A stretch of DNA of 64,000 nt from an uncultured Clostridia bacterium (lineage in GTDB: Bacteria > Bacillota > Clostridia > TANB77 > CAG-508): assembly GCA_946529215.1 (NCBI GenBank), contig CAMMZC010000003.1, positions 3,976 to 67,975 of the forward strand. Reading direction: 5' to 3'. Shown one piece after another: positions 4,109 through 61,839 of the stretch; the stretch's first letter is position 1, and each line of letters starts with the position of its first letter. Under the pieces are notes generated by a model that had not been told where the DNA came from, made no database searches, and was given only the letters and a program-made list of their open reading frames with translations. The translations under genes and the position numbers were made by a program.

Positions 4109-4150
4109 AAAGTCCTCCTCTTTCTTATATATTAATCAAATGTATGCAGT

Positions 4151-4801: not shown

Positions 4802-4946
4802 AGCGATCCCTCCTTGACTAAAATTTTATTAATATACTGTAATGTAATGATGATTGTTTTATGTTTTTTGTGTAAAATATTTTCTATTTGGATTATATCA
4901 TATTGCAATTTTTTTTTCAATAATATATAATTATTTTTGAAAGGAA

Positions 4947-6556: not shown

Positions 6557-8153
6557 TCGCTTTTAGGCTTTTAGGAAATACTACATATTTACCTTTCATA
6601 TCTCTAACAATTTTTCGAGAAAATTCTTCTGCTTCTGGGCAACCAAATAGAGCTCTGTTATTAGTGTTTATATACTCTATCCCTTCAGGAACATAATATA
6701 CTTCTCTTTTAATTTTAAAAAAATTTTTTTCTTTAAGAAGTTTGTACAAAATTATTAAAGGTAATATTTGTTCATTATCTTCTACAATAGATAATCTATT
6801 ACATATTGTTTCTATAGGTAATTGCTCCTTATAACATATTGATTCCCAAGGTGTGCGTTCTGAATCAAACCAATGTGGCCCCTGATTTCCAAAATATTTA
6901 ACGTTGTTTTCTACACCTAAAAAATCTTTTCTATCAGCAATTCTTTTGAACCAGTTAATCATTTTTTCTTCTGAGTTTAGTGATACTAATAATTGTAACA
7001 AATATATATTATTTAATATATATTTTATGTCAAAATCACCTGAATCATTAGTAAAAATATTCTTTATGTAAGAAACAACATCTTTTGCATTTTCTTCACC
7101 AAATAGTTCTTGTAATGTAGAATTATTACCTCTTATAATATCTTCAATCCTTTTTTCTACTTCTTTACTATATATGTCGTATGCTTCTTCACTGTTTCCT
7201 TTTTCTAATAGCGGGCTTTTAAAAAGATTATAATCATTAGCAACAACATCAAATTTTAATTTATATAATTTAGCTTTTATGTCTTTATCTAGCAATTTTC
7301 CATATTTTTCATAGAAATTTAAATCATTTTCTAATTGATCAATTTCATTTAATAAATCTGTTAAAATGCCTGTACTTCTTTTTAAATCGATGCCTTGTAA
7401 TCTTTCAGATAATATTTCTTTATATTCAGGATGTTTATAAAAATAAGATTCAACTCTTTTTTCTAGTATTGCAATTTTAGTATATAAGTCTGTAGTCATA
7501 ACATCTATATCATCTATATTCAAAATATTTGAAGCATTTACTTTTAAGGTTTGATAATAATTTTCTAACTCATCTCTATTTATATTTTCAATTTTTAAAT
7601 TTTGTAATATTGTTTTATAACTTTCTGTTTCAAAGAGTATTGCTTCTTTTTGATTCATACATATTAAAAAACTTGTTGTTAAATTCTCAATTTCTTGTTC
7701 TATTGTGTTACGTTTCTTTTTTGGTAGACCTATTTTTTTCTTTAACTCTGTAAGTGCAACTAATCTACACAATATATCATTTTGCTTTTTTTGTATATCA
7801 CTTAAATACAGTTCAAATTTTTTTAAAAGAATCATTTTATTCATTTCAGATTTTTCTTTTAATAAATTGTCTTTTTCATTTACAAATGTTTTTGTTGTTA
7901 AAGAAATCAGCATATTTAGTTCTTTATTTAATTCTAAATTATTAAAATCTGCTGTAAAAATAATCTTCTTTTTTAGCAATTGATTAAAATCTTCTATATA
8001 ATTATCTATTCTTTCATACATATCTTTGCAATTTAAAAATGCACTTTTACTAGGTATATTAAGTGTATCTGATAATCGCATTATTGTATAGTCGTGATTA
8101 ATATTTAAATTTATTCCGAATATGCTCTTTATTATTTTAAGGATACTTATCAT
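6456..8153 (-). CDS. Hypothetical protein (no recognisable domain)
   Basis: 565-aa ORF with RBS AGGGGGAA 4 nt upstream of the ATG and a consensus sigma-70 promoter upstream. No motif recognised. Confidence 0.5.
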   Translation of the reverse strand: MISILKIIKSIFGINLNINHDYTIMRLSDTLNIPSKSAFLNCKDMYERIDNYIEDFNQLLKKKIIFTADFNNLELNKELNMLISLTTKTFVNEKDNLLKEKSEMNKMILLKKFELYLSDIQKKQNDILCRLVALTELKKKIGLPKKKRNTIEQEIENLTTSFLICMNQKEAILFETESYKTILQNLKIENINRDELENYYQTLKVNASNILNIDDIDVMTTDLYTKIAILEKRVESYFYKHPEYKEILSERLQGIDLKRSTGILTDLLNEIDQLENDLNFYEKYGKLLDKDIKAKLYKLKFDVVANDYNLFKSPLLEKGNSEEAYDIYSKEVEKRIEDIIRGNNSTLQELFGEENAKDVVSYIKNIFTNDSGDFDIKYILNNIYLLQLLVSLNSEEKMINWFKRIADRKDFLGVENNVKYFGNQGPHWFDSERTPWESICYKEQLPIETICNRLSIVEDNEQILPLIILYKLLKEKNFFKIKREVYYVPEGIEYINTNNRALFGCPEAEEFSRKIVRDMKGKYVVFPKSLKAIAFTSYNATGIEFQEGVEEIYLYRINSKNSNSI

Positions 8154-8181
8154 AATATTCCCCCTATTTTATATCAGGAAT

Positions 8182-8210
8182 ATTATACCATACGTCTGAG
8201 TTTATGTCAA
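8182..8210 (-). promoter_or_regulatory. Consensus sigma-70 promoter for the 565-aa hypothetical gene
   Basis: Minus strand reads TTGACA-17 nt-TATAAT: -35 is the reverse complement of 8205..8210 and -10 is the reverse complement of 8182..8187. Confidence 0.6.
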
Positions 8211-8253
8211 CTAGCACATTTAGGATAGGGCTTTTTGCCCATTCCGACTTGCA

Positions 8254-9993
8254 CTAGTCCAAAAAAAGACCTTTCATCCATTTAATTGCATTCTCATAAG
8301 TTGCAACATCTTCCAAATCTACATCAACCATTTTAAGCAGTTCAACAGACTTTTTTGTACAACCTTGTTTTAGCATATCTATATATTTTTCAACATATCC
8401 AGGCTTTTTTTCTAGAATATTTTTTGCAATTACAATTGCAGCCGATACTCCTGTTGCATATTTATATACATAAAAAGGAGTATAAAAATGAGGGATTCTT
8501 GCCCATTCATATTTTATTTGCTCATCTATTACTACATTTTCTCCAAAATATTCTTTGTTTAAATCATAATAGATTTTATTTAAATCTTCAGCAGTTAACA
8601 TTTCTCCAGCTTCAATTTTAGAATGAACGATTTTTTCAAATTCTGCAAACATTGCTTGTCTAAAAAATGTAGCTCTAAACATTTCCATTAGTTCATATAA
8701 AAGCTCTTTTTTCTTGTTTTCATCTTTTTCATTGTTTATTTGATACATTGCAAGTAATATTTCATTTGTAGTTGATGCAATTTCAGCTACCATAATTGTA
8801 TAATTTGCATCTATTACATTTTGATTTGTATTTGAATAGTATGAATGCATTGCATGTCCTAATTCATGAGCTATTGTACTTACATCTCTTTTTTTATTTA
8901 CAAAATTTGTAAGCACAAATGGATGTACTCCATAAACTCCCATACTATATGCTCCACTTCTCTTGTTTTCTTTTTCATATACATCTATCCAATTATTCTC
9001 AAAAGCTTCTTTTAGTTTAGAAACATATTCTTCACCAATTACAGAAAGCGCATCAAGTACTTGTTTTGAAGCTTCTTCATAAGAAATATTATCATCTTCT
9101 GCTTCTATTGGATTAACATATATATCATATAAATGCATTTCATCTTTTCCAAGTAAATCTTTTTTTATTTTCATAAATTCGTGATTTACATTTAGGTTTC
9201 TATGAACAGCTTCAATCAAAGCATTATACACCTTTATTGTAGCATCATCATTATCTACTGCTCTTTCTAAAGAAGAATTATATTTACGTAATTTACTCGT
9301 AATAGTTGCAGATTTAACTTTTGTAATATATAACTCACCAATTGTATTTAAAAATTCACTATATTTTTTATACATTAAATTAAATGCTTGTTTGCGAACT
9401 TCTTCATTTTTATCTTTTAAATAATATGTGTAATTACTATCTGTTAGCTCTACTTTTTCCCCATCTGCATTTTTTAGTTTTCCAAATTTAAATTCTGTAT
9501 TTGTTAAAATATCAAAAGTATCTTCCATACTAGAAAAAACTTCAGAATAATTTGCTAAAAGCTCTTCTTCTTTTTCAGATAGAATATGTGCCTTTTCTTT
9601 TAAAATTTCTTCTAATTCTCTTCTATATCTTTCAAGTTTTGGTTCATTATTCATAAAAGTTAAAAGCTTCTCATTTTCAATTCTAGTAATTTCTGGAGTA
9701 ATAAATGCAGTAGCTTTTTCAAATTCTGTTCCTACATTTTCTACAATCTTATATAGTTTTATATTGTTTGAATTTGCCATATCTAAATGATAAGTTAACA
9801 TTCCATAACTATAAAATTTTTCATAAACTTCCAAAGTTTCTTCATAAAGTCTATAACAGTTATATAAATTATTTGCGCTTTCTCCTAGTTTTCCTTTATA
9901 TTTCTCTAAATTTTTAAGATTATCTTTTATTTTTTGTTTTGCTTCTTCAAAATCCTCTTTTGTTTTATAAATATCTTTTAAATTCCAATTCAT
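8254..9993 (-). CDS. pepF: Oligoendopeptidase F (M3 family)
   Basis: 579 aa. HELGH zinc motif (IAHELGHAMHS) and M3B PepF-like layout. Confidence 0.88.
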   Translation of the reverse strand: MNWNLKDIYKTKEDFEEAKQKIKDNLKNLEKYKGKLGESANNLYNCYRLYEETLEVYEKFYSYGMLTYHLDMANSNNIKLYKIVENVGTEFEKATAFITPEITRIENEKLLTFMNNEPKLERYRRELEEILKEKAHILSEKEEELLANYSEVFSSMEDTFDILTNTEFKFGKLKNADGEKVELTDSNYTYYLKDKNEEVRKQAFNLMYKKYSEFLNTIGELYITKVKSATITSKLRKYNSSLERAVDNDDATIKVYNALIEAVHRNLNVNHEFMKIKKDLLGKDEMHLYDIYVNPIEAEDDNISYEEASKQVLDALSVIGEEYVSKLKEAFENNWIDVYEKENKRSGAYSMGVYGVHPFVLTNFVNKKRDVSTIAHELGHAMHSYYSNTNQNVIDANYTIMVAEIASTTNEILLAMYQINNEKDENKKKELLYELMEMFRATFFRQAMFAEFEKIVHSKIEAGEMLTAEDLNKIYYDLNKEYFGENVVIDEQIKYEWARIPHFYTPFYVYKYATGVSAAIVIAKNILEKKPGYVEKYIDMLKQGCTKKSVELLKMVDVDLEDVATYENAIKWMKGLFLD

Positions 9994-10022
9994 AATTACT
10001 CCTTTCCGTGTTAATCCCCAAA

Positions 10023-16499: not shown

Positions 16500-18575
16500 T
16501 TATTGATTTTTTAATTTTAATATGTTGATTGTTTCCATAGTTTCTTTAGACTTCTCGTTATCTTTGCCATATACTTTGCATTGTAATTTGTATAATTTTT
16601 CGTATAACTCTAGCGAATTATTATATTTTTTCATTTTTTTATAAATACTAGCTAAATTATTTAAATTCCTTAATGTATTTGGATGAGTTTTCCCTAATGT
16701 TTCTTCACTCTTTTTATATGCTTCTTTTCCAAATTTTATAGCATTATCATAATTTTCTATATCACTATAATAAGTTGCAAGATTGTTTAACGATGTTAAT
16801 GTGTTAGGATGAGAGTCTCCCAATATTTCCTTTAATTTATTATAAACTATTTCACCTAATTTTACAGCTTTATTATAATTTCCCGTATGATTATAATAAT
16901 AAGAAAGATTATTTAAGCTTCTAAATGTATCTGGATGCTCATATCCTAATGTCTCTTTTCTATTTTTGTATACCTTTTCTCCTAACCTTATTGCTTCTTT
17001 ATAATCTTTTTTATAATTATAATAAATTGCAAGTCTGTTTAAACTTGTTAATGTATTTGGATGAGTTTTGCCTAATGTTTCTTTTCTTTTTTTATACACA
17101 TCTTTTCCGAGTTTTATTGCCATATCATAATTTCCTATATTACTGTAACTGACAGCTAGATTATTTAAACTAGTTAATGTATCAATATGAGTTTCTCCTA
17201 AACTTTCTTCTCTTTTTCTATATACTTCTTCTCCAAGTTTTATTGCTATATCATACTTTCCAATATCATCATAACCTCTCGCTATATTATTTAAACTATC
17301 TAATGTATATAAATTATTCTCTCCTAATACTTCTTTTTGGATTTTATAGCATTCATTGTTTACTTCCAATGCTTTGTTATAATCACCTGTATTTCTATAA
17401 GCAACAGCCAATTTAGTTAAACTTATCAATGTATTTAAATGTTTTTCTCCTAATTCTTTTTTATCTTTTTCATATACCTTTTTTTGCCACTCTAAAGCTT
17501 TTTTATAATCTAATTTTGTTCCTTTACCTTCTTCATATATATATACAAGCTCTTTCATTGCTTCTTTACATTCAAGATTTCCTGATTGTTCAAGCAGTTT
17601 TATTCCTTTTTCTTTATTTACTTCAACATCAATGCCATTTAAATATGCTAATCCTATAAAGTATAAGTGTTTTGGATCATCATTTTCCCTCCATGCTTCA
17701 TTTATTAAATACTTTTTTAAAGATTCACTTAAAAGCTCTGTATCATTTACTTTAATCGGAACAGGTATTTCTTTATATTTTTTTTGTAATTCTTCTTTAC
17801 TTGTATCTACCGCTTCAATTGGAACTATATTTTTACATTCTTTTTTAGCATTTGGATATTCTATTTTTTCCACATAGTTTTCTTCATTTACTAGATTTGG
17901 CGTTACAACCATTGCAAATAATTTACTTTTCTTCAAAGCTTCCTCTATTGACTCATTAAAATCTTGCCCTGGCTTTAAAAACTCATCATACCAAATTGCA
18001 ATATCTCTGCAAAATTCATTTTCATGAATTAAATGCATTATGTTTTCAGCATGTTTTTTGTCTTTTTTTCTATAACTTAAAAATATATATGCATCAAAAG
18101 CTTCTTGAACCTGTTTTCTCAATTCATCACTTACTAATACTGATTCTATATATTCTTTTAATTTACTTTTATATTTTTCTTCTCCAACAACTAACTTACT
18201 TAATGCTTGAAGGTTTCCACATTTTTCGTTAAAGTAGCTATCTATATTTGGCTCCATCATTATTGGCAAAATTGGAATATGATTATCCATTGCATATTGA
18301 AATTCTACTACTCTTGCATCACATTCTTCTGATATAAATTTCCATGTTACAGGTATCACAAATAAGTTTATTTGGCTCAAGTCATCTATAATTTCTCTTG
18401 AATTAATATTTTTATCAGCTTTATAATAAATTACACAATTTCTTATATCTAGAATTTCTTCAGTTATCTCTTCAAAATATTTATCAAAATCATTTTGATA
18501 GCAACAAAAATATACTCTTGATTTATCTTTTAGTTCTTTTCCTCTTGTTTTATATTTTAACTTTATTTCTTCCAT
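16500..18575 (-). CDS. Tandem TIR-like domains + TPR (TPR_10/12-type) repeat protein
   Basis: 691 aa. Residues about 160-300 match the TIR pattern (YIFLSYRKKD...IAIWYDEFLKPGQDF...FAMVVTPNLVNE). Residues about 15-150 are a second TIR/DUF4062-like module (RVYFCCYQNDFDKYF...). The C-terminal half holds about 8 TPR repeats ending in SLNNLA..Y/ LGK.HPNTL. Confidence 0.7.
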   Translation of the reverse strand: MEEIKLKYKTRGKELKDKSRVYFCCYQNDFDKYFEEITEEILDIRNCVIYYKADKNINSREIIDDLSQINLFVIPVTWKFISEECDARVVEFQYAMDNHIPILPIMMEPNIDSYFNEKCGNLQALSKLVVGEEKYKSKLKEYIESVLVSDELRKQVQEAFDAYIFLSYRKKDKKHAENIMHLIHENEFCRDIAIWYDEFLKPGQDFNESIEEALKKSKLFAMVVTPNLVNEENYVEKIEYPNAKKECKNIVPIEAVDTSKEELQKKYKEIPVPIKVNDTELLSESLKKYLINEAWRENDDPKHLYFIGLAYLNGIDVEVNKEKGIKLLEQSGNLECKEAMKELVYIYEEGKGTKLDYKKALEWQKKVYEKDKKELGEKHLNTLISLTKLAVAYRNTGDYNKALEVNNECYKIQKEVLGENNLYTLDSLNNIARGYDDIGKYDIAIKLGEEVYRKREESLGETHIDTLTSLNNLAVSYSNIGNYDMAIKLGKDVYKKRKETLGKTHPNTLTSLNRLAIYYNYKKDYKEAIRLGEKVYKNRKETLGYEHPDTFRSLNNLSYYYNHTGNYNKAVKLGEIVYNKLKEILGDSHPNTLTSLNNLATYYSDIENYDNAIKFGKEAYKKSEETLGKTHPNTLRNLNNLASIYKKMKKYNNSLELYEKLYKLQCKVYGKDNEKSKETMETINILKLKNQ

Positions 18576-18647
18576 AACAATACTCCTATCATAAAAATTC
18601 TCTACTATTTTGTAAATGGTAAATTATTTAAAAAAATAACAATGTTA

Positions 18648-19232
18648 TTAATTAGTGATTGATTTACACATATAAATCCAAATATAGCTCCACAAATTCC
18701 ACCGAATTAAATGAGAATCATGTGCTATATTATCTTTCTTTCTTAGATCTTTTATTTCATCTATAATATAAAATATTATTATTAATACTAGAGTTATTGG
18801 TATTTTATTTTCTGTAATATTAACAAATGCACTTAAAACAGTTAGCATAAAAGATATACAGCTTGCACCTTTAAGCCATTCTTTTCCTTTAATAAAATTG
18901 AAAATTCCAACCACAAATGCAGTTATTAATATCATAATTAATAAATTAACAGAACCGTACTTTTCTTCTATAAGAGGTCCGAGTAATAAAATTTTTAGAT
19001 AATTATTTGAAAGATGACTCCAATCAGCATGTCCAAGTATATGTGTAAATAATCTTATATAAGTTAATGGGTTTAGTAAAGACGCTCTTTCTGTCGAAAA
19101 TACACGTCTTGTAGATTTTCCTTTTGTAATTTTGTCTAATAGAAGCACACCAAGAGATATAAAGAACATTGTAAGAGTTACAACAGCATTATATTGAAAA
19201 TAGTCCATTATATTAATTTCTTGTATATTCAA
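18648..19232 (-). CDS. Rhomboid-family intramembrane protease-like membrane protein
   Basis: 194 aa, multi-TM. GHADWSHLSNN, GASCIS (GxSx) and AHDSHL motifs are rhomboid-like. The ORF-track start is TTG; an alternative ATG is at 19208. Confidence 0.5.
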   Translation of the reverse strand: MNIQEINIMDYFQYNAVVTLTMFFISLGVLLLDKITKGKSTRRVFSTERASLLNPLTYIRLFTHILGHADWSHLSNNYLKILLLGPLIEEKYGSVNLLIMILITAFVVGIFNFIKGKEWLKGASCISFMLTVLSAFVNITENKIPITLVLIIIFYIIDEIKDLRKKDNIAHDSHLIRWNLWSYIWIYMCKSITN

Positions 19233-19543
19233 TGTTATCTCTTCCCTTCTTTATTCACCTTTAATATATTTTTGTATATCTTTAACTGCTTTTTTATTTC
19301 TTCTTATTTCTCTTGCTCTATTGATATCTTCCTTATACAACTCTTTGCATCTTATTTATTCTATCTATAATATCTCTTATTTCTTCTTGGTTATATTCTT
19401 TCATAAACTACTCCTACTCATTTTCAAAATACTGACTAAACTGATTTTTTAATTCGTTTAAATCATCAAAATCTATCACATCTTCTTTAATTTTACCATA
19501 CCTTATGCATAAATGGGCCATGTATATTTTATTACTTTTTTTA

Positions 19544-22500
19544 TTATTCATTTATTTTTCTTATAACTATTTCATCTTTCTCTTTAATAACAAATTCATT
19601 CATTTCTTCTTTATCAATAAATTTATAATAATATTCTCCTAAAGGTAAATTTCTTGCACCTGCTTGGCCATTTTCATTGGTAGTTATTGTTATAATCTCA
19701 TCTTTATTGCTATCAAAAATCCTTATTTTTAAACCTACCTTAGGTTTATTATTTTTATCTTTAACTTGTATTGCAAATCTCCCTTTATAACGCTCTACTT
19801 TTATAACTGGATAAAAAGTTCTATTTTCGTCATCAATAGTAACTCTATATGTTGTTTCATCCATTATATAATTTCCTGTAAGACTAATTAACTTAAATAA
19901 ATACACAAATAAATAGCCATGACGCAAAGTAACATATGCTTTACCATCTCCATCTGTTACTACTTCAGTTAAATAATGTCCTTCTTTATCATAAATATAG
20001 AATGTTCCACCTTGAATTGGGTTACTTGCATCATCAACTAATGTAATAACTAGTTGATTTCTAGGATATATCAATTTAAAATTTGTTACATCTGCACCGT
20101 TAACATATACATATTTTGACATAAGTTCTTTATCCTTGTTATATTTGTCAACTAATGCGATTCTATACATTCCAACAGGAACTTTATAGTAGCTAATTTT
20201 GGCATCAGATCCAACAAATGACTGTCCTAATTTATTATCTGCACTATCATAAAGATTTACTGCATATCCTATAAGTGCATCCTCATTTAAATCAACAAAT
20301 TTTGCTTGAATTTCTCCTAAATAGCCCAGGTTCTTATTTGGAACAAATTCGCTAATATTTTGCTTTTTAACATTTAAAGCTTTAGATGTTTCTTCATCTG
20401 TCAATTCTTTGGCTATTTTAATTAATTCATTTGAAGCAAGATTTTCTGAAATTTCAATTCCAATATCTTTTAAAATTTTTTTTCTTAATTCTATAGCATC
20501 TTTCAATTGTTTTGCTTTAATCATTTCTTGTAAGATTTTGAATTGAAATAACTCATAATCTCCGACATTGTATTTTTCAAACTTTATTTTCTTAAATATT
20601 GCTTGATATTCCACACATTTTTCGTAGTTTTTAATTGCGTCCTTTGGTTTATTATTTTTGCTTTCAACTTCAGCTAATTTAGCATATATTTCGCTTAAAA
20701 AATAATCTCGTATAGCTCTACCATAAATATTATTTTCACTTATAAATTCATTATTATTTTTCACATAAGAAATAGCGTTTTTATATGCACTTGTTGCTTT
20801 TTTAAAATTAGTTTCCTTTAAACTATTTTCAGCTACTTCGTAATATTTAGTTTTCAAATCTTCTATTAATTCGTTATATTTTTCTGTTTGTTTTTTGTAG
20901 TTTTCTATTGCTTGATTTTTTTTATTTATTAAATTTTCAATTTCTTTTTTTGAACTTGTATTGTCTGGTAAAATCACAACTTTATTATTAATAACATCTA
21001 TTTCATCATCATAAAGCAAAATTAAATTTTTATACAAACCATATGTCTTATATATTTCTTCTAATTTATTAAAAGAATCAAACATAACCAAATTATAAAA
21101 TATAGGTTTTTCAAAAAGATTCTCTTTAACATAACATAGAATTTCATTATAAATACCAACAATTTCACTATAATCTTTTTCTACAAAACCAATTTTGTTG
21201 AATTTGTAATTAGCATACTTATAATAAAGGTCTATCTTGATTTCTTGTAAATCATCAAATTTTATAGAAAATTGATGATATTTAAACCATGATTTAATTG
21301 CCTTAAAATAATTATCTACAATTTTATTAAATAAACCAATATTTGTAAAATACTTAAATATTCCATATGAACTTCTAATAATAGAATATACAGCCACATC
21401 ATTTTGATTATATTTATTATTGTTTAAAGTTTTGATTATATCCGAATATATAAATATTGCTTTGTTTAAATTCTTTTTTCCCTCTTTTGTTTTTTCATCA
21501 TCAAAAAATTTTTCAGCTTCACTACAAAGTAAGTCAGCTTTAGCTAAATCTATTTCGGATTTAATAACTGTTAAATCTCTATGATTTTCAATATTTAATT
21601 CTATCTCATAAATATTATATAAAGATTTAATAGTATTTTTTGCTTTTTCAAAGTCACCACTTAATTCATAAAACTTTGATAGCTTTATTGCTAAATTCAT
21701 TGAGTAATCTATATGATTATATTCAGCCCAATCTAAATATTTTTGTATTAATTCTGCAGCTTTGCAATAATCTTCTTGTTTATTACAAAATTCTGCAAAT
21801 ATTAAAAAGGTATCTCTTTGTAAATTGTTATCTTCTTCGACTTTTATTGCTCTTTCATATGAGGCATAGATTTCTTTAACTCTATCTGGATTATTAATAT
21901 CTAAATTATATGTTTCAGCTCTTGATATTAATTCTTGTACAAATTCAGATAATTTCTTTCTTCCACTCTCCTGCTCTACTTCTATATGTACAATATCATC
22001 ATTAATTTCTTCAATATTAAGTATTTCTTTAGCAGATTCTAAGTCACCTCTTTCTAAGCATTTATACGCAGCAATTTGTTTCTTTGTAAGATTATTTTTC
22101 CCCGCTTCTTTAGAAAACTTTTTACTAAAATCAAATATTTGATTTTCTAAATTTTGAATATCTCTTTTATATTTATAATATTTCTCTGTAATTTCATCTA
22201 ATTTATTTGCTTCTTCTTTTGTATATTTTGTTTTATCAGATGATTTTAATTCCAAATATTCATCTTCAATTTTTTCAAATTTTTCTTTTAATTCAATTAA
22301 CTGCTCATTCTTAAAAAACATCGGAATTTTATCTAATACTAATATTTCCTCGCCATCTATACAAATGCTTCCATCAATTATTTCAATTGTTACATTTGAT
22401 GTTTTCATGTCATCGATTTTATTATTAATTTCATATTTAATACGATAAATATCAATATATTCACCATAGTAATGTTGCAAATTATCTCCAACATATTTAA

Positions 22501-23341
22501 TAAACTCATCTGCTTTTTTAGTTCTCTCTTTTACATCTTTTCTAACAAATGGTCTTAAATCAAGACTCTCATTTTCAATAAAATATTTATATGCATTATC
22601 AAAGTCTTTATATATTTTTTCGTCAATGTCTTTACCAACTATTAAAAATAATCCTGAACAATCTTTCAGTTGTTTTTCTGTTAGAGAAGTTATATCTTCA
22701 TTAGTAATAAAATTAAAATATACACGATGCTTTTTATATTTATCATTTATGTTCCTAATAAAATTACTAATTGCATATTTATCATTTTCTATATCTTTAT
22801 TTCCTTCAAGAAAAATAAAGTTATATTTTTTTAATTCTTCTTTTTCTAAATCTTCTTCATCAATTTTTTCAATACTATTATTTATTATTTCTTTAACCTT
22901 ATTATATAATTCTTCTTCTTCATCATATTCTTTTATTTTATTTTTAAATCCACCATTTAATACATCATTACCAAGTTTTTCTCTAAATTTAGCTACTGAA
23001 TCATCAGCATCACATTTTTTAAAGAATATAAACCTTCTTATACCTTTAACTTCTTTAGATACATCATATTCTTCAACAGTATATTCTCCTGCTCTTTTCC
23101 CAATTAGCAATATCATAACATCAGATTCTCTTAATTTTTGATTATATTGCTCTTGTTTTCTGCCTTTTACCATAGAATTATCTTCAAATTCACATTCAAA
23201 CAAATTAATCCTAATACCTTTTTCTAATAAGTCATCTTGCATTCTTCTTACTAAGTCGCCAATTTTATTTCTTTCAGTTTCAAATTCATTAATAGAAGAA
23301 GCTAAAAATATTTTTATTTCATTTTTATTATAACTTGGCAT
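19544..23341 (-). CDS. Large cytoplasmic multi-domain protein: two DUF4062/TIR-like modules + coiled-coil/TPR + C-terminal Cna-B/carboxypeptidase-regulatory-like beta-sandwich repeats
   Basis: The N-terminus IKIFLASSINEFETERNKIGDL...SDVMILLIGKRAGE fits the DUF4062 pattern. A second similar module follows (YNFIFLEGNKD...CSGLFLIVGKDIDE). The middle has TPR-like helical repeats. The C-terminal about 250 aa has repeats like TLVDDASNPIQGGTFYIYDKEGHY and GLKIRIFDSNKDE. No signal peptide. Likely start is ATG at 23341 (RBS GAGGA); the ORF-track start at 23356 is GTG. Confidence 0.6.
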   Translation of the reverse strand: MPSYNKNEIKIFLASSINEFETERNKIGDLVRRMQDDLLEKGIRINLFECEFEDNSMVKGRKQEQYNQKLRESDVMILLIGKRAGEYTVEEYDVSKEVKGIRRFIFFKKCDADDSVAKFREKLGNDVLNGGFKNKIKEYDEEEELYNKVKEIINNSIEKIDEEDLEKEELKKYNFIFLEGNKDIENDKYAISNFIRNINDKYKKHRVYFNFITNEDITSLTEKQLKDCSGLFLIVGKDIDEKIYKDFDNAYKYFIENESLDLRPFVRKDVKERTKKADEFIKYVGDNLQHYYGEYIDIYRIKYEINNKIDDMKTSNVTIEIIDGSICIDGEEILVLDKIPMFFKNEQLIELKEKFEKIEDEYLELKSSDKTKYTKEEANKLDEITEKYYKYKRDIQNLENQIFDFSKKFSKEAGKNNLTKKQIAAYKCLERGDLESAKEILNIEEINDDIVHIEVEQESGRKKLSEFVQELISRAETYNLDINNPDRVKEIYASYERAIKVEEDNNLQRDTFLIFAEFCNKQEDYCKAAELIQKYLDWAEYNHIDYSMNLAIKLSKFYELSGDFEKAKNTIKSLYNIYEIELNIENHRDLTVIKSEIDLAKADLLCSEAEKFFDDEKTKEGKKNLNKAIFIYSDIIKTLNNNKYNQNDVAVYSIIRSSYGIFKYFTNIGLFNKIVDNYFKAIKSWFKYHQFSIKFDDLQEIKIDLYYKYANYKFNKIGFVEKDYSEIVGIYNEILCYVKENLFEKPIFYNLVMFDSFNKLEEIYKTYGLYKNLILLYDDEIDVINNKVVILPDNTSSKKEIENLINKKNQAIENYKKQTEKYNELIEDLKTKYYEVAENSLKETNFKKATSAYKNAISYVKNNNEFISENNIYGRAIRDYFLSEIYAKLAEVESKNNKPKDAIKNYEKCVEYQAIFKKIKFEKYNVGDYELFQFKILQEMIKAKQLKDAIELRKKILKDIGIEISENLASNELIKIAKELTDEETSKALNVKKQNISEFVPNKNLGYLGEIQAKFVDLNEDALIGYAVNLYDSADNKLGQSFVGSDAKISYYKVPVGMYRIALVDKYNKDKELMSKYVYVNGADVTNFKLIYPRNQLVITLVDDASNPIQGGTFYIYDKEGHYLTEVVTDGDGKAYVTLRHGYLFVYLFKLISLTGNYIMDETTYRVTIDDENRTFYPVIKVERYKGRFAIQVKDKNNKPKVGLKIRIFDSNKDEIITITTNENGQAGARNLPLGEYYYKFIDKEEMNEFVIKEKDEIVIRKINE

Positions 23342-23383
23342 TCTTATTTTCCTCACTTATCTTATTACTTTTTATATATTACC

Positions 23384-25288
23384 CTATTCTGTAAAATCAT
23401 TTAACATCATTTTTACTATATCGTAATCACTTGATTTTAAATCTTTATTAATTCCCATACTTTGTAATTGATAAGAAACATTATCTAATTCTTCAAAAGG
23501 CACAAGAGCTGGGTGTCTTCTTCCTAAATAATCTCTGTGATCATTTAATATAGGATAATATCTTCTTACATCATCAATATTGGCTTTTATATACCCTATT
23601 GTTCTCATGTAGGCATTCCATCTATCATGTTCATTTTTTGCAAGCATTTCTTTTAATTCTTCTGTATAAATTTCTCTAAACATTTTCAAATTTTCTTTTA
23701 GATTTTTAGAATATTTTTCTCCTAATACAGAATACAATTTATATTTTACATGAAGTGCACTTGCTCTTGATGAACGTTTATTATATTCATTTAAATAATA
23801 ATCTGCAGAACTTCCACGATATGCTTTATGTATTTTTTCTCCAATTTTCTCAATTTCAGAATCAACTATTTTATTATCAAAATACATATCTTTTACACTG
23901 CCAAAAGCATTTATATCATATGTTGTTTCTTTTTCATTAATAAGCTTGTTTACTTGTTCTTTTTTATATTCATTTTGAATCCAAATATTTATTATTGGCT
24001 TTCTCTCATAATTTCTAATAAATAATCTTCTTAAATCTATTGCTGTATCTAAATTTTTACTATCTGTCTCCATTGATACTAATATATAATTTATGTCATT
24101 TACCTGTTCTATAGCCTCTATTGCTTTTGGAGATTTTATATCTGCATTAACAAATGTAATATCATAATTATTTAAAATGTCAGGTGTTTCAATTTCAAAA
24201 TTTTTCTTAATTTCGTCTGCTTTTATATCAATTACTAATGCTTTAAATCTATAACCTATCATCATTCCACACCATAAAGCATCTTTTAAAAATTCTTTTC
24301 CTACTTGTCCACAACCAACAATAAGCAATGATATAACATTATCAATTGCTCCTTCATAAATTGGCTTTTTATCTAATAAATTGAAAATTGCTCTTTCTTT
24401 TTCATTTACAATTTCTACATTAACAAACTCTTTATCAGATAAATCTAATTTTATAAGTTCTTGTTCGATTTTATCTTCAACTTCTGCATCTACAACATCT
24501 TTATCTGATAATCCTAATTTTGTCAGTATTTTTTTTCTTTCTTCTAATTTTATTTTATTAATAATATCTCTATTTGCCGAGTCTAAAACTATTGGCGCTT
24601 CTTCAGTATTGTTTATAACATATACTTTAATCTTTTGGTTTTTGTATTTTTCCATAATTTCTAACGCATCATTAAGATTTTGTTCTTCATTTTCAGAAAT
24701 CATATATATAGTTATATTATTATCATAATTATTTAAATTAATTTCGCTCATTTTTTCGGAAAGCTTTATAGATTTAAAAGAATCTGTTTTACCATTTCTT
24801 TTATATTCTACATTAGTAAATATAACTGCATTATTATTGTTCACATAACCTTCTGCAATCATAACAGATTTCTCATTCATTTCTGAAAAAAAGTATAAAT
24901 TTTTATTTTTTAATCTCTTAATTTTAATACCTTTAAATAAATCGTTTAAAATAGCAATTAAAGTACTTACAGTAAAAAAAGGCAAAGCAATTAAAAAGAT
25001 ATTTATCCAAATAAAATATCCAATTCCAAAAGCACTATGTGTATTAATTTTTGATAAAACATCTATATCTTCGTTTAGTGTTATACTTTTTAATGCATAA
25101 TAAAATGTATTAGTTACTTTGATGGCGATATTACTATAATCTAAAAGTGGAAACACCAAAATTCCCAAACAAATAAGTCCTATTCCCATTATTATAAAAA
25201 ATCTATATTTAGTGTCTATTTTGTAATTTTTTAATAATACAAATCCAATTATTGTTACCACAATACTTAAACTAAAAGTTATTACCAT
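23384..25288 (-). CDS. Membrane protein with 2-3 N-terminal TM helices, Rossmann (TrkA_N/RCK-like) domain and C-terminal RyR domain
   Basis: 634 aa. N-terminal hydrophobic helices. VGCGQVGKEF is a GxGxxG motif. C-terminal ...HDRWNAYMRTIGY...RRHPALVPFEELD resembles the RyR (PF02026) pattern. The start codon abuts the stop of the upstream RyR gene. Confidence 0.55.
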   Translation of the reverse strand: MVITFSLSIVVTIIGFVLLKNYKIDTKYRFFIIMGIGLICLGILVFPLLDYSNIAIKVTNTFYYALKSITLNEDIDVLSKINTHSAFGIGYFIWINIFLIALPFFTVSTLIAILNDLFKGIKIKRLKNKNLYFFSEMNEKSVMIAEGYVNNNNAVIFTNVEYKRNGKTDSFKSIKLSEKMSEINLNNYDNNITIYMISENEEQNLNDALEIMEKYKNQKIKVYVINNTEEAPIVLDSANRDIINKIKLEERKKILTKLGLSDKDVVDAEVEDKIEQELIKLDLSDKEFVNVEIVNEKERAIFNLLDKKPIYEGAIDNVISLLIVGCGQVGKEFLKDALWCGMMIGYRFKALVIDIKADEIKKNFEIETPDILNNYDITFVNADIKSPKAIEAIEQVNDINYILVSMETDSKNLDTAIDLRRLFIRNYERKPIINIWIQNEYKKEQVNKLINEKETTYDINAFGSVKDMYFDNKIVDSEIEKIGEKIHKAYRGSSADYYLNEYNKRSSRASALHVKYKLYSVLGEKYSKNLKENLKMFREIYTEELKEMLAKNEHDRWNAYMRTIGYIKANIDDVRRYYPILNDHRDYLGRRHPALVPFEELDNVSYQLQSMGINKDLKSSDYDIVKMMLNDFTE

Positions 25289-26819: not shown

Positions 26820-26984
26820 ATCAGATCATTCCTCTCTTAAATACTTATAGTTGTTTAATTCTTCTTTTCTTAAACTAAATCATTATTTTAAATACACATA
26901 TATAATAGCACTTGAATAAAAAAAATGCAATCAAAACTTTAAAAATAAAAAGATTTTTATGTAATCAAATTTTTAAGCGCAAAA

Positions 26985-27195
26985 AATCCCCGCTGTAGCC
27001 GTAACTTGTGCCAAAATTTTTAACAACCTGCTCTCACAAACAGGTGGGTGCCTACCTAAATACTCATGGGCTTCTTACTACTATTATATTGCAAAAAGTG
27101 TAAGCTTGCACGCCATATTCAGAGTTCAGCCCCTCTTTAAACTTGTAGGTTCTAAAAATTCTGCAATACGCACTATGCAGGGGTTTTGTTTAATT
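26985..27195 (+). ncRNA. Candidate structured small RNA of unknown class (6S-like or other)
   Basis: About 210-bp non-coding segment with clearly higher GC than its flanks, lying between two minus-strand genes. The 5' end CCCCGCTGTAG can pair with the 3' end CTATGCAGGGG, followed by TTTT. Internal hairpins include GGTGGG-TG-CCTACC and CCTAC...GTAGG. GU pairs favour the plus strand. Confidence 0.3.
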
Positions 27196-42965: not shown

Positions 42966-43382
42966 TTAGTTTGCTATAGCTAATTTAAGTTCTTTTATTT
43001 CATTTTCATTTGAAATAATTCTAGCTTCTAACTTAGCATCGCGTTCATAGGTTATAGAGGATACTACATTTATTGCATTAACTACATCTTCTACTATTTC
43101 TTCTTTTTGTTTCTTTAAATCTTCTTTAAATTCTGCTCTTAATTCTTTTAAATCTTCTTTAAATTCTGCTCTTAATTCTTTTAAATCTTCTTTAGTTGCA
43201 AATTTCTTTAAGTCTTCTTTAGTTGCAAATTTCTTTAAGTCTTCTTTAGTTGCAAATTTCTTTGCTTCTTCTTTTGTAACCATATTTTTCAACTCACTTC
43301 TTATTTCGTCTAAAGCTGTTTGAAAATTATTAAATCCTTTTAATAATGTAATAAGTATATCATCTCTTTCTTTATTAGTCAT
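42966..43382 (-). CDS. Coiled-coil tandem-repeat protein (hypothetical)
   Basis: 138 aa with peptide repeats (KKFATKEDL)x3 and (KELRAEFKEDL)x2, encoded by perfect DNA tandem repeats. Confidence 0.5.
   Translation of the reverse strand: MTNKERDDILITLLKGFNNFQTALDEIRSELKNMVTKEEAKKFATKEDLKKFATKEDLKKFATKEDLKELRAEFKEDLKELRAEFKEDLKKQKEEIVEDVVNAINVVSSITYERDAKLEARIISNENEIKELKLAIAN
43120..43275. repeat. Intragenic perfect tandem DNA repeats (2 x about 42 bp and 3 x 30 bp)
   Basis: aattcttttaaatcttctttaaattctgctctt repeated twice, then aagtcttctttagttgcaaatttcttt repeated three times. A potential length-variable locus. Confidence 0.85.
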
Positions 43383-52605: not shown

Positions 52606-53937
<1,332 letters not shown>

Positions 53938-53945
53938 TTATATAG

Positions 53946-54043
53946 GAAAAATCGTCAGATTTTTGTGTATATAAAAAGACAAAGTTTCCTATATTTGCGC
54001 GATTGCTTTGCAATCTGCGCAGTGGCGAAGCCACTTTTCTTAT
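53946..54043. repeat. Repeat family C copy 1: conserved promoter-proximal module upstream of eno
   Basis: aaaaatcgtcagatttttgtgtatataaaaagacaaagtttcctatatttgcgcgattgctttgcaatctgcgc...ccacttttcttat matches 61066..61162 upstream of gap at about 85% identity. Contains the palindromes AAAAATC-n4-GATTTTT and gattgc-ttt-gcaatc. Confidence 0.6.
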
Positions 54044-54249
54044 ATTTTAATGAATATATAAGTATTTTAAGAAGTAATCTTAGTTAACTAAATAGCTTAA
54101 AAATTCTTAATAATTTTGCAAGGGAATCTAAAAACAAATTTTTTTAGGGTGCTTGTAAAATTAATTAGAATTTTTAGCGTTAAATGAAAGTTACCTAAGA
54201 TTATTCGAAAAATACATATATATTCATTTAATTCACAAAATTAAATACA

Positions 54250-55008
54250 TTAATTATCTAAAATCTGATTTTTAGACGTTTTCTCTTTTTCTACCTCTTC
54301 ATGCATTTCCTCTTTTGTATGTTTATTTTTATCTTTGTTATAAACTACATTGCTAAAAATTTTACTTTTTATAGTACTTGCTTTACTAATAAGTTCATCT
54401 TTTTCATACATAACAAAATCACGAGCAGCAATATCTTCTTTACCAAACCCTATATTATGATTTTCTGTTTTAACATATAATCCTGTTTCATATAATTCTT
54501 TTTTTTGCTCATCATTACTGTTAAAATAGCTTTCAAGAATTTTTCTTTCTTCTTTGCTGTCTCCCCCTATTTTTAGATATTTATATTTCCAAATAATATT
54601 TCTTTCAAATACATCTTGTTCTGTATTAGGTAAAGTATCATATCTATATTCTATTCTAAATTTTAAATTTGCAATAGAAATGCTTAAATTTGTCCAAACT
54701 TCTTGGTCTGTATCTATAAAATCTTGTCTTAAACTCTTTATACATTTAAATAGTTCTTCTACAATTTTCAAGTATTGTTCTTCGTTTATATTAAACCTTC
54801 TAGGAACTTCATAAACATTAATATATTTTTTCTTTAAAATTCCTTTTGGCAAATAATAGAAAAACATTTCTCCTGACCCAGAGTTTTCCTCTTCTTTATA
54901 AACAGATGCATACAAATATATTTCTTCCCATTTTTCAGGTATAAGAGTAAATATATAATTTTGAATTTGTTCATATTTTTCTTTCATTGTTTTCGTAGTT
55001 CTTAACAT
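54250..55008 (-). CDS. YezG/DUF600-family immunity protein homolog with C-terminal extension
   Basis: Residues about 10-165 match the YezG pattern (LIPEKWEEIYLYASV...MFFYYLP...WKYKYLKIGGDSKEERKILESYF). RBS AAAAGGAA lies inside the gpmI 3' end; the start is 4 nt after the gpmI stop. Confidence 0.6.
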   Translation of the reverse strand: MLRTTKTMKEKYEQIQNYIFTLIPEKWEEIYLYASVYKEEENSGSGEMFFYYLPKGILKKKYINVYEVPRRFNINEEQYLKIVEELFKCIKSLRQDFIDTDQEVWTNLSISIANLKFRIEYRYDTLPNTEQDVFERNIIWKYKYLKIGGDSKEERKILESYFNSNDEQKKELYETGLYVKTENHNIGFGKEDIAARDFVMYEKDELISKASTIKSKIFSNVVYNKDKNKHTKEEMHEEVEKEKTSKNQILDN

Positions 55009-55012
55009 TTAT

Positions 55013-56560
55013 TTATTCCTTTTCTAATAGAGTTTCGCCTGTCATTTCCTTAGGCTGATCAATATTCATCAAATCTAATATAGTAGGTGCTAAATCCGCA
55101 AGTTTTCCTTCAGATTTTAGCTTTATATTTTGATTTTCAGATACTACAATCATTGGAACCAGATTTGTTGTATGTGCAGTATGTGGTTCTCCTGTTGCAT
55201 AATCTATCATTTGTTCACAATTTCCATGGTCTGCTGTAATTATTAAATTACCATGCATTTCATTTATTGCCTTTACAACTTTTCCAAGACATTCGTCTAC
55301 CGCTTCTACAGCTTTTATAGCTGCTTCTAAGCTTCCTGTATGACCTACCATATCTGGATTTGCATAATTTAAAATTATACAATCATATTTTCCACTTAAA
55401 ATTGCTTCTACAACTTTTTCTGTAACTTCATATGCACTCATTTCTGGTTGTAAATCATAAGTTTCTACTTTAGGAGATGGAATCAAAATTCTATCTTCTC
55501 CTTTGTATTGCTTTTCCTCGCCACCATTAAAGAAAAATGTAACATGAGCATATTTTTCTGTTTCTGCGATTCGAAGTTGTGTTAATCCTCTATTACTAAG
55601 TACTTCTCCTAATGTATTTTTGATTTGCTCCTTTTTAAATGCTATATGAACATTTGGCATAGTTTCATCATAAGATGTAAAACATACAAAATATGTGTTT
55701 ATTTTTTTTGTTTCAAATTCGTTAAAATCTTTATCAACAATTGCTCTTGTTATTTCTCTTGCTCTATCAGGTCTAAAGTTAAAGAATATAACAGAATCAT
55801 TTTCCTCTATTTTAGCAATTGGAGTTTCCCCATCTGCTGAAGTAATTACAGTTGGTTCAACAAATTCATCAAAAACTTCTTTTTGATAAGAATTTTCGAT
55901 TGCATTTATAACATTAGCAGATTTTATACCTTCACCATTAACTAGTGCATCATAAGCTTTTTTTACTCTTTCCCATCTTTTGTCTCTATCCATACTATAA
56001 AATCTTCCAGAAATTGAAGCTATTTTTCCAATTTCTTTTTCTTTCATTTTCTCTTGTAATTCTATAATATAGTTTTCTGCAGAAGCAGGTGGTGTATCTC
56101 TTCCATCTAAAAAGCAATGTACATAAACATTTTCAAAATCTCTTCTTTTAGCCATTTCTAAAAGACCATATAAATGTCTATTATGGCTATGAACTCCTCC
56201 GTCTGAAAGAAGTCCTAAAATATGTAATTTTGAATTATGTTTTTTACAATTCTCTATAGCATTGATAAATTCTTCATTTGAGAAAAAATCCCCATCTTCT
56301 ATAGATTTTGTTATTCTTGTTAATTCTTGATATACAATTCTTCCTGCACCTATATTTGTATGACCAACTTCAGAATTACCCATTTGTCCTTCTGGCAAAC
56401 CAACAGCTAACCCACTTGGCTTTATTTTTGTTGTTGGATACTTTTTCATAAGTGAATCAATATTAGGTGTATTCGATAATTTAACCGCATTTCCTTCTTC
56501 TTGCTCATTTATACCAAATCCATCTAATATCATTAGCATTGTTACTTTTTTTGGTTCCAT
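55013..56560 (-). CDS. gpmI: 2,3-bisphosphoglycerate-independent phosphoglycerate mutase
   Basis: MEPKKVTMLMILDGFGI... is iPGM. Start at ATG 56560 with RBS GGAGG; the track's N-terminal extension was rejected. Confidence 0.9.
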   Translation of the reverse strand: MEPKKVTMLMILDGFGINEQEEGNAVKLSNTPNIDSLMKKYPTTKIKPSGLAVGLPEGQMGNSEVGHTNIGAGRIVYQELTRITKSIEDGDFFSNEEFINAIENCKKHNSKLHILGLLSDGGVHSHNRHLYGLLEMAKRRDFENVYVHCFLDGRDTPPASAENYIIELQEKMKEKEIGKIASISGRFYSMDRDKRWERVKKAYDALVNGEGIKSANVINAIENSYQKEVFDEFVEPTVITSADGETPIAKIEENDSVIFFNFRPDRAREITRAIVDKDFNEFETKKINTYFVCFTSYDETMPNVHIAFKKEQIKNTLGEVLSNRGLTQLRIAETEKYAHVTFFFNGGEEKQYKGEDRILIPSPKVETYDLQPEMSAYEVTEKVVEAILSGKYDCIILNYANPDMVGHTGSLEAAIKAVEAVDECLGKVVKAINEMHGNLIITADHGNCEQMIDYATGEPHTAHTTNLVPMIVVSENQNIKLKSEGKLADLAPTILDLMNIDQPKEMTGETLLEKE

Positions 56561-57467: not shown

Positions 57468-57803
57468 TTAACATTTTTTATTATGTTTATATTCTCTATG
57501 CCTATTATATTGCATTTTCTCTTCAATTATTTTATCTAAATCAATATTATATGCTCCGCAAAAATCACATATTCTAATTATAACATCTGCAAATACTGAA
57601 GGTATACCACAAGGCTTATCTCCATTTTCATAATATGTTTCATTAAAGTCCTTTCCATGTCTATATTCTTCAAATGCTTCAGATAATTCTGTGTGCATTA
57701 ATGCAATTACTTCTCCAAAATCTCTTTCTTTTTCCCAAAAACCATGTTTCTTTGAATTTTCGAAAGCTTCTTTAGATATATCATTTAATGATTTCATAAT
57801 CAC
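57468..57803 (-). CDS. MazG-like nucleotide pyrophosphohydrolase (small, all-alpha)
   Basis: 111 aa. KHGFWE...ALMHTELSEAFEEYR...FADVIIRICDF matches the small MazG/NTP-PPase family. Confidence 0.65.
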   Translation of the reverse strand: MIMKSLNDISKEAFENSKKHGFWEKERDFGEVIALMHTELSEAFEEYRHGKDFNETYYENGDKPCGIPSVFADVIIRICDFCGAYNIDLDKIIEEKMQYNRHREYKHNKKC

Positions 57804-58645
57804 ACCTCTTCTAATTTATTTTTTACCCTTATAATATCTTCTTTTGGAGTTGATGCTCCTGCCATTATTCCAATTGTTTTTATATCTTTCATTTTTTTTA
57901 TATCTAATTCATTTTCATCAGCTATAAATAAAACTTTATCACAATATTTACATGATATTTCATATAATTTATTTGTATTTGAGCTTCTCTTGTCACCTAT
58001 TATTACCATCATTTCAACTTTTTTTGCTATTTCTTTAGTTTCTTTTTGTCTAATTTCAGTTGATGGACAAATTGTTTTTTTAATTTCTAAATGAACATTA
58101 TTTTTTAACTGTCTTTTTAATTCCTCTGCAATTTCATCAAATTTTATTGAACTATGTGTTGTTTGAGAAATTAATAAAATATTTTTTTCATTTTGAATTT
58201 TTTTTAATACTTTATTTATTTCCTCTTTATTAGCTATAACTGCATATTTAGTCCCCGCTCTACTTTTTATTCCTATTATTTCCGGATGTTTATTATCACC
58301 AACTATAATTATAAAAAAGTCTTTTTTTGAATAATCTTCTACCATCTGTTGAATTTTTAAAACACTTGGACAAGTTAAGTCTATAAGTGCAATATTGCTT
58401 TTTCTTGCTTTTTCATATACATCTTTTGGTACGCCATGAGCCCTTATTATTGTTTTGCCTTTTGCTTGTTCTATATTATTAATAAATATTACTCCTGCTT
58501 TTTCTAACTTTTCTATCACATTTTGATTATGAACTATTTCACCTAAGCAATATGTTACACCAATTCTAGCTTCTTTTATTGCATTATCTACTGCTCTTTT
58601 AACTCCGTAGCAAAAACCTGCATTTTCACCTATTATTATCTCCAT
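57800..58645 (-). CDS. ispH: 4-hydroxy-3-methylbut-2-enyl diphosphate reductase
   Basis: 281 aa. NAGFCYGVKRAV, VHN, and the three-Cys layout of IspH/LytB. A 4-nt overlap with the downstream mazG-like gene. Confidence 0.82.
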   Translation of the reverse strand: MEIIIGENAGFCYGVKRAVDNAIKEARIGVTYCLGEIVHNQNVIEKLEKAGVIFINNIEQAKGKTIIRAHGVPKDVYEKARKSNIALIDLTCPSVLKIQQMVEDYSKKDFFIIIVGDNKHPEIIGIKSRAGTKYAVIANKEEINKVLKKIQNEKNILLISQTTHSSIKFDEIAEELKRQLKNNVHLEIKKTICPSTEIRQKETKEIAKKVEMMVIIGDKRSSNTNKLYEISCKYCDKVLFIADENELDIKKMKDIKTIGIMAGASTPKEDIIRVKNKLEEV

Positions 58646-59939: not shown

Positions 59940-60002
59940 AAATATCCATCCTTTCATAAATAAATGGGTAGAAAAGTTCCCCCTCCACCCATATTTTTCA
60001 AC

Positions 60003-61298: not shown

Positions 61299-61574
61299 TT
61301 AGTTGTTATAATGACCTTTACAAGAAATAATTTTCACGCAATCATTATCTATTGTATAAACTATTCTATTTACATCATCTATTCTTCTACTCCAAAATCC
61401 CAACAAGTTATCTTTTAGAGGTTCAGGTTTTCCAATGCCTTCATAAAAATTTCTATTTATGTCTTTTATTAATAAATTGATTCTTTTTAAAGTCTTTTTG
61501 TCCTGTTTTTGCCAATAGCAATAATCTTGCCACGCTCTTTCTTCCCATAAAATTTTCATATTATTTATCATCAT
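61299..61574 (-). CDS. yoeB: YoeB/Txe-family type II toxin
   Basis: KILWEERAWQDYCYWQKQDKK...GKPEPLKDNLLGFWSRRIDDVNRIVY...KGHY. Start ambiguous (ATG at 61574, 61571 or 61559), overlapping the antitoxin stop. Confidence 0.8.
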   Translation of the reverse strand: MMINNMKILWEERAWQDYCYWQKQDKKTLKRINLLIKDINRNFYEGIGKPEPLKDNLLGFWSRRIDDVNRIVYTIDNDCVKIISCKGHYNN

Positions 61575-61839
61575 CCTCTATTAAATCATGCTCTTCAAAT
61601 TTTGCTTTTCCTGTTTTAATATCAGATACAATTTTTTCAAGATATTCTATATTACTTTTAGAATAAAATGGGTCTATTTTTATTTCAAATGGTAATCTTC
61701 TTTCTCTTAGTACTGTTTTTATAAACATATTTATTGCTACTGATACATTCATACCTGCTTCATTACAAAATAATTCAAAATTCTTTTTATCTAATTCATT
61801 AACTCTTACACTTAAATTTGTTTGAGCCATAAAAATCAC
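61561..61839 (-). CDS. RelB/DinJ-type (RHH) antitoxin paired with YoeB
   Basis: 92 aa. MAQTNLSVRVNELDKKNFELFCNEAGMNVSVAINMFIKTVLRERRLPFEI is a DinJ/RelB N-domain. Acidic C-terminus. Confidence 0.7.
   Translation of the reverse strand: MIFMAQTNLSVRVNELDKKNFELFCNEAGMNVSVAINMFIKTVLRERRLPFEIKIDPFYSKSNIEYLEKIVSDIKTGKAKFEEHDLIEDDDK

Follow-up and report, generated by a model that had tools for sequence, protein, structure and literature searches.

The gene found directly behind gpmI in the glycolytic operon of an uncultured Clostridia bacterium encodes a YezG/EsaG-like (DUF600) protein, whose immunity fold may have been recruited for a conserved role in the cell, with expression alongside the phosphoglycerate mutase iPGM. 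We give this reading a probability of roughly one half. So far, DUF600/EsaG proteins have been known only as accessory, fast-changing, toxin-linked antidotes to T7SS nuclease toxins, and to our knowledge no non-immunity role is known for the family. Here, in contrast, a whole DUF600 branch behaves like a core gene, being present in one copy at a fixed site of the glycolytic operon, kept under purifying selection and equipped with a conserved tail of its own. In context, copy number, evolutionary rate and architecture, the gpmI-linked protein lacks the defining features of the EsaG/YezG-type immunity class. Annotation pipelines will call such genes immunity or antitoxin genes, a label which probably describes them badly.

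The gene behind gpmI and its protein

The window analysed, that is, the whole stretch of DNA under study, comprises 64,000 nt of an uncultured Clostridia bacterium (assembly GCA_946529215.1, contig CAMMZC010000003.1). The genes of interest lie on its minus strand in the order gap, pgk, ispH, a 111-aa ORF, tpiA, gpmI, the DUF600 gene, eno and rpe. The gene and its junctions are laid out as follows:

55013..56560, minus strand: gpmI (2,3-bisphosphoglycerate-independent phosphoglycerate mutase), the invariant upstream neighbour; open reading frame, Metalloenzyme/iPGM_N in L001
55017..55021, minus strand: Shine-Dalgarno sequence AAGGA of the DUF600 gene, within the final Lys-Glu codons of gpmI
54250..55008, minus strand: coding sequence of the gpmI-linked YezG/EsaG-like protein; open reading frame of 252 aa with an ATG start, stop codon at 54250-54252
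53914..54249, minus strand: spacer of 336 nt between the gene and eno, found in this genome only, with a palindrome and two GC-rich hairpins
52606..53913, minus strand: eno (enolase), which follows the gene only here and in close relatives; open reading frame, Pfam Enolase_N/C in L001

The Pfam domains of gpmI (Metalloenzyme/iPGM_N) were assigned on the called gene of locus L001, and the probable start of gpmI is Met29 of the listed ORF. Its TAA stop codon occupies 55013-55015 and the ATG of the DUF600 gene stands at 55008, which leaves a gap of 4 nt (55009-55012). At the other end the gene is not flush with eno, from which the 336-nt structured spacer separates it. Since the 252-aa protein has 779 homologue clusters and the gene evolves with a dN/dS of about 0.1, the ORF is a real gene and not a chance one; its GC and GC3 equal those of the neighbouring genes. 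The gene is most likely transcribed with the gap-pgk-tpiA-gpmI operon and, in this genome, its translation appears to be coupled to that of gpmI.

The protein can be divided into four parts:

54535..54987, minus strand: DUF600/YezG-like globular domain, aa 8-158 (confident model from about aa 1 to 165)
54475..54501, minus strand: extra beta-strand after the domain, ELYETGLY, aa 170-178 (AF2 strand E170-176)
54274..54471, minus strand: K/E/N-rich low-complexity linker, aa 180-245, predicted to be disordered and of variable length among relatives
54259..54273, minus strand: KNQIL motif, aa 246-250; family consensus [KR][NS][QP][IL]L

The domain matches PF04634 (YezG-like, formerly DUF600) with E=4.3e-30 and 105.2 bits against a cutoff of 21.7, over residues 8-158 and profile positions 1-145 of 146. 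The score for NCBIfam TIGR01741 (the staph_tand_hypo subfamily of DUF600) was 70.2 bits, below the cutoff of 82.05, and PADLOC gave no match on the protein. An AlphaFold model built on a 98-sequence alignment reached a mean pLDDT of 81, with values above 90 across most of residues 1-170, and the modelled fold covers about aa 1-165. It is the fold of EsaG and BH3703, a four-stranded sheet sandwiched by helices, and sequence profiles recovered the same two structures as the fold comparison did (E=1e-10 and 6e-08). Structural similarity to the SUKH superfamily (Syd, Smi1 and 2PRV-type domains) was not found. The residues Y11, L110, V112 and F114 of the EsaG docking patch align with conserved Y12, F117, I/V119 and Y/F121 here. 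More broadly, the most conserved blocks (Y12, F117-Y121 and N64-E76) align with EsaG Y11, L110-F114 and the alphaB' segment, the parts of EsaG which grip both halves of EsaD. This conservation is compatible with a conserved binding surface and suits recruitment or immunity alike.

The extension beyond the domain (residues 166-252) is 87 aa long and contains 15 K and 13 E (32% K+E, 40% charged). It is not junk, as alignments show both a conserved strand motif and a conserved motif near the C-terminus. The strand block is modelled with a pLDDT of about 87-91; its motif, Y/F-x-x-G-[LIMV]-Y, occurs in only part of the wider subfamily, and G176 and Y178 are invariant in all 18 orthologues compared. 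In the linker the pLDDT drops to about 47-56, the model being of low confidence beyond about residue 180, and this region is probably disordered. Protein length varies between 199 and 364 aa within the subfamily, a variation which is located in the linker and adds no Pfam domain. A Pfam scan of the longest members (300-364 aa) revealed no fused domain which could hint at a partner.

Of the 120 closest homologues, 114 have the motif near the C-terminus, the exceptions being mostly truncated sequences; it also occurs in many representatives at 33-47% identity. It reads KNQIL here, while other branches have NNQILF, KNPILK[FY], RNQLL or KSQIL. As synonymous changes are seen in its codons but the residues stay the same, it is the peptide that is under selection. 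We rejected the idea that the tail is conserved as DNA or RNA, in view of this synonymous codon variation and of a downstream context which differs between lineages. A beta-clamp-binding motif has the form QL[SD]LF; since most tails, such as QILDN, QILNF and PILKF, do not have what it requires at positions 4 and 5, this explanation of the tail was rejected.

Much of what the initial annotation described for this gene was borne out by these measurements: an N-terminal YezG-family match of about 165 residues, which it had proposed to verify with the PF04634 profile, a Lys/Glu-rich extension put at about 85 aa, and a start 4 nt past the gpmI stop with the ribosome-binding site inside gpmI. Its remark that no toxin gene is nearby also holds: all ORFs of the 64-kb window were read, with Pfam searches of the unassigned ones, and no LXG, WXG100, EssC or Endonuclea_NS_2 gene was present.

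Linkage, copy number and selection across lineages

A scan of one genome per bacterial species yielded 19 loci, all from uncultured Clostridia MAGs of animal and human guts with a GC content of 26-32%. The DUF600 gene stands directly after gpmI in every one of them (19/19), with gpmI identities of 71-97% and DUF600 protein identities from 89% down to 35%. Together with five metagenome lineages the linkage to gpmI was found in 24/24 lineages examined, at 33-90% identity. Distant representatives from the all-protein search (P0127, P0129, P0124, P0182 and P0150; 33-41% identity) have the gene directly behind gpmI as well, and in P0129 eno is also downstream. The upstream neighbour is thus constant while the downstream neighbour varies: eno follows in L004-L009 and L104 and does not follow in L010-L022, L024 or L105, where its place is taken by an Hsp20-like gene, a membrane protein gene, a NifU-like gene with GGGtGRT, or others. 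The gap between gpmI and the DUF600 gene is 4-5 nt in L004-L007 and L105 and 9-120 nt elsewhere, being 9-20 nt with an own GGAGG in most lineages and 62-120 nt in a few. A hairpin lies inside this spacer in L103 (166-244) and in L116 (829-892). In L103 it is followed by a T-run and is terminator-like, so the coupling to gpmI may be attenuated there.

As a control, we collected 80 metagenome loci by gpmI alone. One in-clade locus (L024) carries the gene directly after gpmI and another (L023) ends before the site can be judged. In 66 loci the sequence extends for 700 nt or more beyond gpmI, and no DUF600 gene was detected in any of them by tblastn or by an HMM built from A3; in 65 of these the gpmI identity is 66% or lower, and the remaining one is L025. 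Direct succession of gpmI and eno, within 45-262 nt, was seen in 7 of the 66, and this order is the ancestral, classical one. L025 is an in-clade locus (gpmI 74% and eno 84% identical) without a DUF600 gene at gpmI, therefore the gene is dispensable at least in this lineage. Between gpmI and eno, L025 carries a NifU-like gene (236 aa) and a GGGtGRT-family gene (332 aa; 2973-4890); in L014-L022 and L105 this pair lies downstream of the DUF600 gene. From the comparison of junctions it can be concluded that the DUF600 gene was inserted between gpmI and eno in the ancestor of the lineage; where eno has moved, the gene is still found at gpmI.

Each locus and each window gave one HMM match, so that the gene is single-copy; a second DUF600 copy is absent from the 64-kb window, and neither tandem paralogues nor the variable copy number of EsaG/YezG-type genes were observed. 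The reading frame is intact in every lineage. By the pairwise Nei-Gojobori method, in which several pairs were near synonymous saturation (dS about 1), the dN/dS of the DUF600 gene was 0.06-0.24 in nine pairs drawn from three subclades (globular domain: 0.06-0.10), in comparison to 0.03-0.075 for gpmI and eno in the same pairs. The gene is thus under strong purifying selection, and the pairwise values do not show the fast or diversifying evolution typical of toxin-immunity interfaces. A simple neighbour-joining tree of the domain only (about 158 columns) separates the long gpmI-linked proteins from the canonical DUF600 proteins of 150-173 aa. The former apparently constitute a distinct DUF600 branch of single origin, and the gpmI-linked gene is vertically inherited.

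In EsaG/YezG-type systems the immunity gene lies immediately downstream of its toxin gene. Here, the upstream gene is gpmI in 24/24 lineages, and the loci do not resemble an immunity island or array of the rAID or orphan esaG type, as neighbouring immunity or recombinase genes are missing. A tblastn search with two PF13930 toxins found no such nuclease in the window; across the roughly 840 kb of loci examined, only two control loci contained one. These controls are the loci of canonical relatives (P0193 and P0195), which are 36-38% identical to the domain, are encoded directly behind Endonuclea_NS_2 (PF13930) toxins and begin within a few nt of the toxin stop codon. P0195 belongs to a four-gene tandem array, and integrases lie near P0193. 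Such a toxin-adjacent layout is the textbook one for EsaG and YezG (PMC9616950, PMC7033585, PMC10765036, bioRxiv 10.1101/2022.01.07.475358). These short, toxin-adjacent DUF600 proteins (loci L109-L114) belong to the same Pfam family, yet they are only 158-162 aa long and placed on the other side of the family tree.

These comparisons bear on the central proposal of the initial annotation, namely that an orphan immunity gene had been inserted into the glycolytic operon. The insertion point itself stands when set against outgroups in which gpmI is followed by eno, whereas the gene is neither a stray nor a recent arrival. The picture of an orphan immunity gene dropped into an operon is not supported, given the pairing with gpmI throughout a separate DUF600 branch, and likewise purifying selection, single copy and conserved additions absent from canonical immunity proteins. 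The proposal was also said to fall if every relative had the gene at this gpmI-eno junction and if it belonged to some conserved family of another kind. Half of this holds: the gene is conserved there in nearly all relatives, but its family is DUF600 and not an unrelated one.

Two further toxin-like loci were noticed. In L105, a membrane-anchored PT-HINT (pretoxin Hint) protein is encoded at 7807-9996, 3.5 kb downstream of the DUF600 gene and preceded by two unannotated ORFs; it has no recognisable toxin or nuclease domain and is absent from the other lineages. In the window, a YoeB/Txe toxin and a RelB/DinJ antitoxin (type II TA) are encoded at 61299-61839, immediately upstream of gap; this is the sole toxin-antitoxin module of the window and is unrelated to DUF600.

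Comparison with known systems and possible roles

EsaG, the T7SSb immunity protein of S. aureus (PDB 8GUO/8GUP), is a single-domain protein of 162 aa without a disordered region (PMC9616950), and its gene lies directly after esaD and forms tandem, recombining arrays of variable copy number (PMC9616950; bioRxiv 10.1101/2022.01.07.475358). In contrast, the protein described here has 252 aa, with an added strand, a linker and a C-terminal motif, and its gene is single-copy, stands behind gpmI and is under strong purifying selection. With YezG, the Bacillus subtilis antitoxin of the LXG nuclease toxin YeeF and the eponymous member of PF04634, our protein shares the full-profile match to this family. 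However, yezG is paired with yeeF (PMC7033585, PMC8321402), whereas neither the window nor the surroundings of any orthologue contain an LXG or Endonuclea_NS_2 gene. BH3703 of Bacillus halodurans (PDB 2IA1/3I0T), a DUF600 protein whose function is unassigned, has 178 aa and lacks both linker and tail.

In that an immunity-type gene occurs in a gut bacterium with no toxin next to it, the present case resembles orphan esaG copies and the rAID arrays of Bacteroidales. The orphan immunity genes known so far, however, are found in arrays or in islands associated with a recombinase, and they change rapidly and show positive selection at the interface (PMC12247911; bioRxiv 10.1101/2022.01.07.475358), while the gene studied here is a fixed and slowly evolving member of a core operon. 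A precedent is offered by toxin-immunity scaffolds re-used on cellular proteins, such as Syd, which binds SecY, and the eukaryotic and viral SUKH proteins (PMC3113570), although this is an analogy of working principle only. Positive functional evidence for DUF600 proteins concerns nuclease-toxin immunity only (PMC9616950, PMC7033585). In the literature searched, no paper was found to name DUF600 together with gpmI or phosphoglycerate mutase, and none dealt with exaptation of a DUF600 protein.

The recruitment reading can be put as the following scenario. A DUF600 branch would have inserted behind gpmI, at the gpmI/eno junction, in the ancestor of a low-GC lineage of uncultured gut Clostridia and would have been inherited vertically ever since. 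It would be expressed from the glycolytic operon transcript and, in this genome, coupled to translation of gpmI. The four parts of the protein, i.e., an EsaG-like protein-binding domain, an extra beta-strand, a flexible K/E-rich linker and a short peptide near the C-terminus, would form a binding module with a tethering peptide, the tail probably serving for tethering or docking. Having left the toxin-immunity arms race, the domain would now bind a conserved cellular protein and not a polymorphic toxin, and the immunity role appears to have been lost. The obvious candidate for this partner is iPGM, given that the position next to gpmI is the only constant. It is nevertheless doubtful, and we propose it tentatively, that the partner is iPGM or another component of glycolysis or the degradosome, with the protein acting as an inhibitor, chaperone or tether co-translated in stoichiometric amounts whose C-terminal peptide docks a second partner. 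Should this be true, a glycolysis regulator would have been derived from a toxin antidote. Recruitment in general would be a clear case, in bacteria, of an immunity scaffold that has become a housekeeping factor, and might reveal a protein-level control of iPGM and glycolysis in abundant uncultured gut Clostridia.

Several considerations weigh against recruitment, among them the absence of the gene from this site in L025 and the restriction of the functional evidence on DUF600 proteins to nuclease-toxin immunity. The adjacency to gpmI could be explained equally well by dependence on the operon promoter, without any physical interaction, and a T7SS or nuclease toxin may be encoded elsewhere in the genome, as the coverage comprised the 64-kb window and flanks of 5-10 kb. 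It is quite possible that the protein still serves as a constitutive orphan immunity factor which neutralises EsaD/YeeF-type nucleases of competing gut Firmicutes, with the operon keeping this protection on and the tail being an accessory. The fold is bona fide DUF600/EsaG, the hydrophobic patch with which EsaG docks its toxin is conserved, PF13930 toxins with DUF600 partners do occur in metagenomes and no cognate toxin lies nearby; moreover, EsaG and YezG confer nuclease immunity, and orphan esaG genes are found in esaD-less strains (PMC9616950, PMC10765036, bioRxiv 10.1101/2022.01.07.475358). Such a role, supported by homology only, fits less well with a single copy at one core site in 24/24 lineages, evolving with a dN/dS of about 0.1 in a branch separate from toxin-linked proteins. 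The orphan and cognate immunity genes described to date occupy arrays or islands, differ in copy number, undergo recombination and change quickly (bioRxiv 10.1101/2022.01.07.475358; PMC12247911). It also leaves the linker and the motif without a role, as the EsaG mechanism needs no disordered region (PMC9616950). If the protein does still confer immunity, defence against interbacterial nucleases can turn into a constitutive core trait of a lineage.

We consider it improbable that the protein is the cognate immunity partner of an unlinked toxin encoded elsewhere in the same genome, its gene having moved into the glycolytic operon. Inspection covered a 64-kb part of this genome and, in relatives, the 5-10 kb surrounding the gene, which leaves room for such a toxin, and the PT-HINT protein 3.5 kb downstream in one subclade (L105) might be cited in favour; however, this protein has no recognisable nuclease domain and is missing from the other lineages, and the loci of the 24 lineages contain no PF13930 nuclease. 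Only a few nt lie between the toxin stop and the start of the DUF600 gene in both canonical relatives examined, and a polymorphic toxin is not expected to last across a clade in which gpmI identity falls to 71%. A recent mobile insertion, or a decaying hitch-hiker without function, is scarcely credible. It is true that this operon accepts guests, as seen from ispH and the 111-aa ORF between pgk and tpiA and from the palindromic insert in the spacer, but the frame is intact in every lineage with a dN/dS of 0.06-0.24, GC and GC3 are like those of the neighbours, orthologues occupy the same site down to 33-40% identity, and neither flanking repeats nor mobility genes are present.

The spacer, operon guests and other loci in the window

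The spacer before eno contains, as revealed by inverted repeats, an imperfect palindrome of about 190 nt (54046-54231) and two adjacent GC-rich hairpins (53997-54035). Its RNA fold has an energy of -90.7 kcal/mol (z=-8.7). The equivalent spacer is 64 nt long in L004 and 20 nt in L005, and the structured element is absent from these closest relatives. The spacer gave no Rfam match and no plasmid match by blastn, and the pair of GC hairpins occurs just once in the window. The element may have arisen as a MITE-like insertion, or it may act in RNA processing or stability and uncouple eno.

Other parts of the operon are variable too. Between pgk and tpiA (57468-58645), this genome carries ispH (281 aa) and an overlapping 111-aa ORF, the latter with no Pfam or NCBIfam match; the same interval differs in relatives, where ispH is present twice (L004) or missing (L005), or where other inserts of about 0.7-1.2 kb are found. 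In this clade, guest genes repeatedly occur within the glycolytic operon. A terminator-like hairpin of 13 bp is located at 59964-59992, on the coding strand of the short gap-pgk interval, and may mark a site of differential expression or processing inside the operon.

Further away, three adjacent large genes at 16500-25288 may constitute a defence-type island. They encode a TIR and TPR protein of 691 aa with weak ThsB/SAVED-TIR PADLOC matches, a protein of 1270 aa with DUF4062, TPR and SpaA domains, and a membrane protein of 634 aa which weakly matches a RyR domain. An ORF of 138 aa at 42966-43382, with no Pfam match, contains tandem KKFATKEDL / ELRAEFKEDLK peptide repeats. The window also contains a 6S RNA on the minus strand at 26983-27186 (Rfam RF00013, 76 bits).
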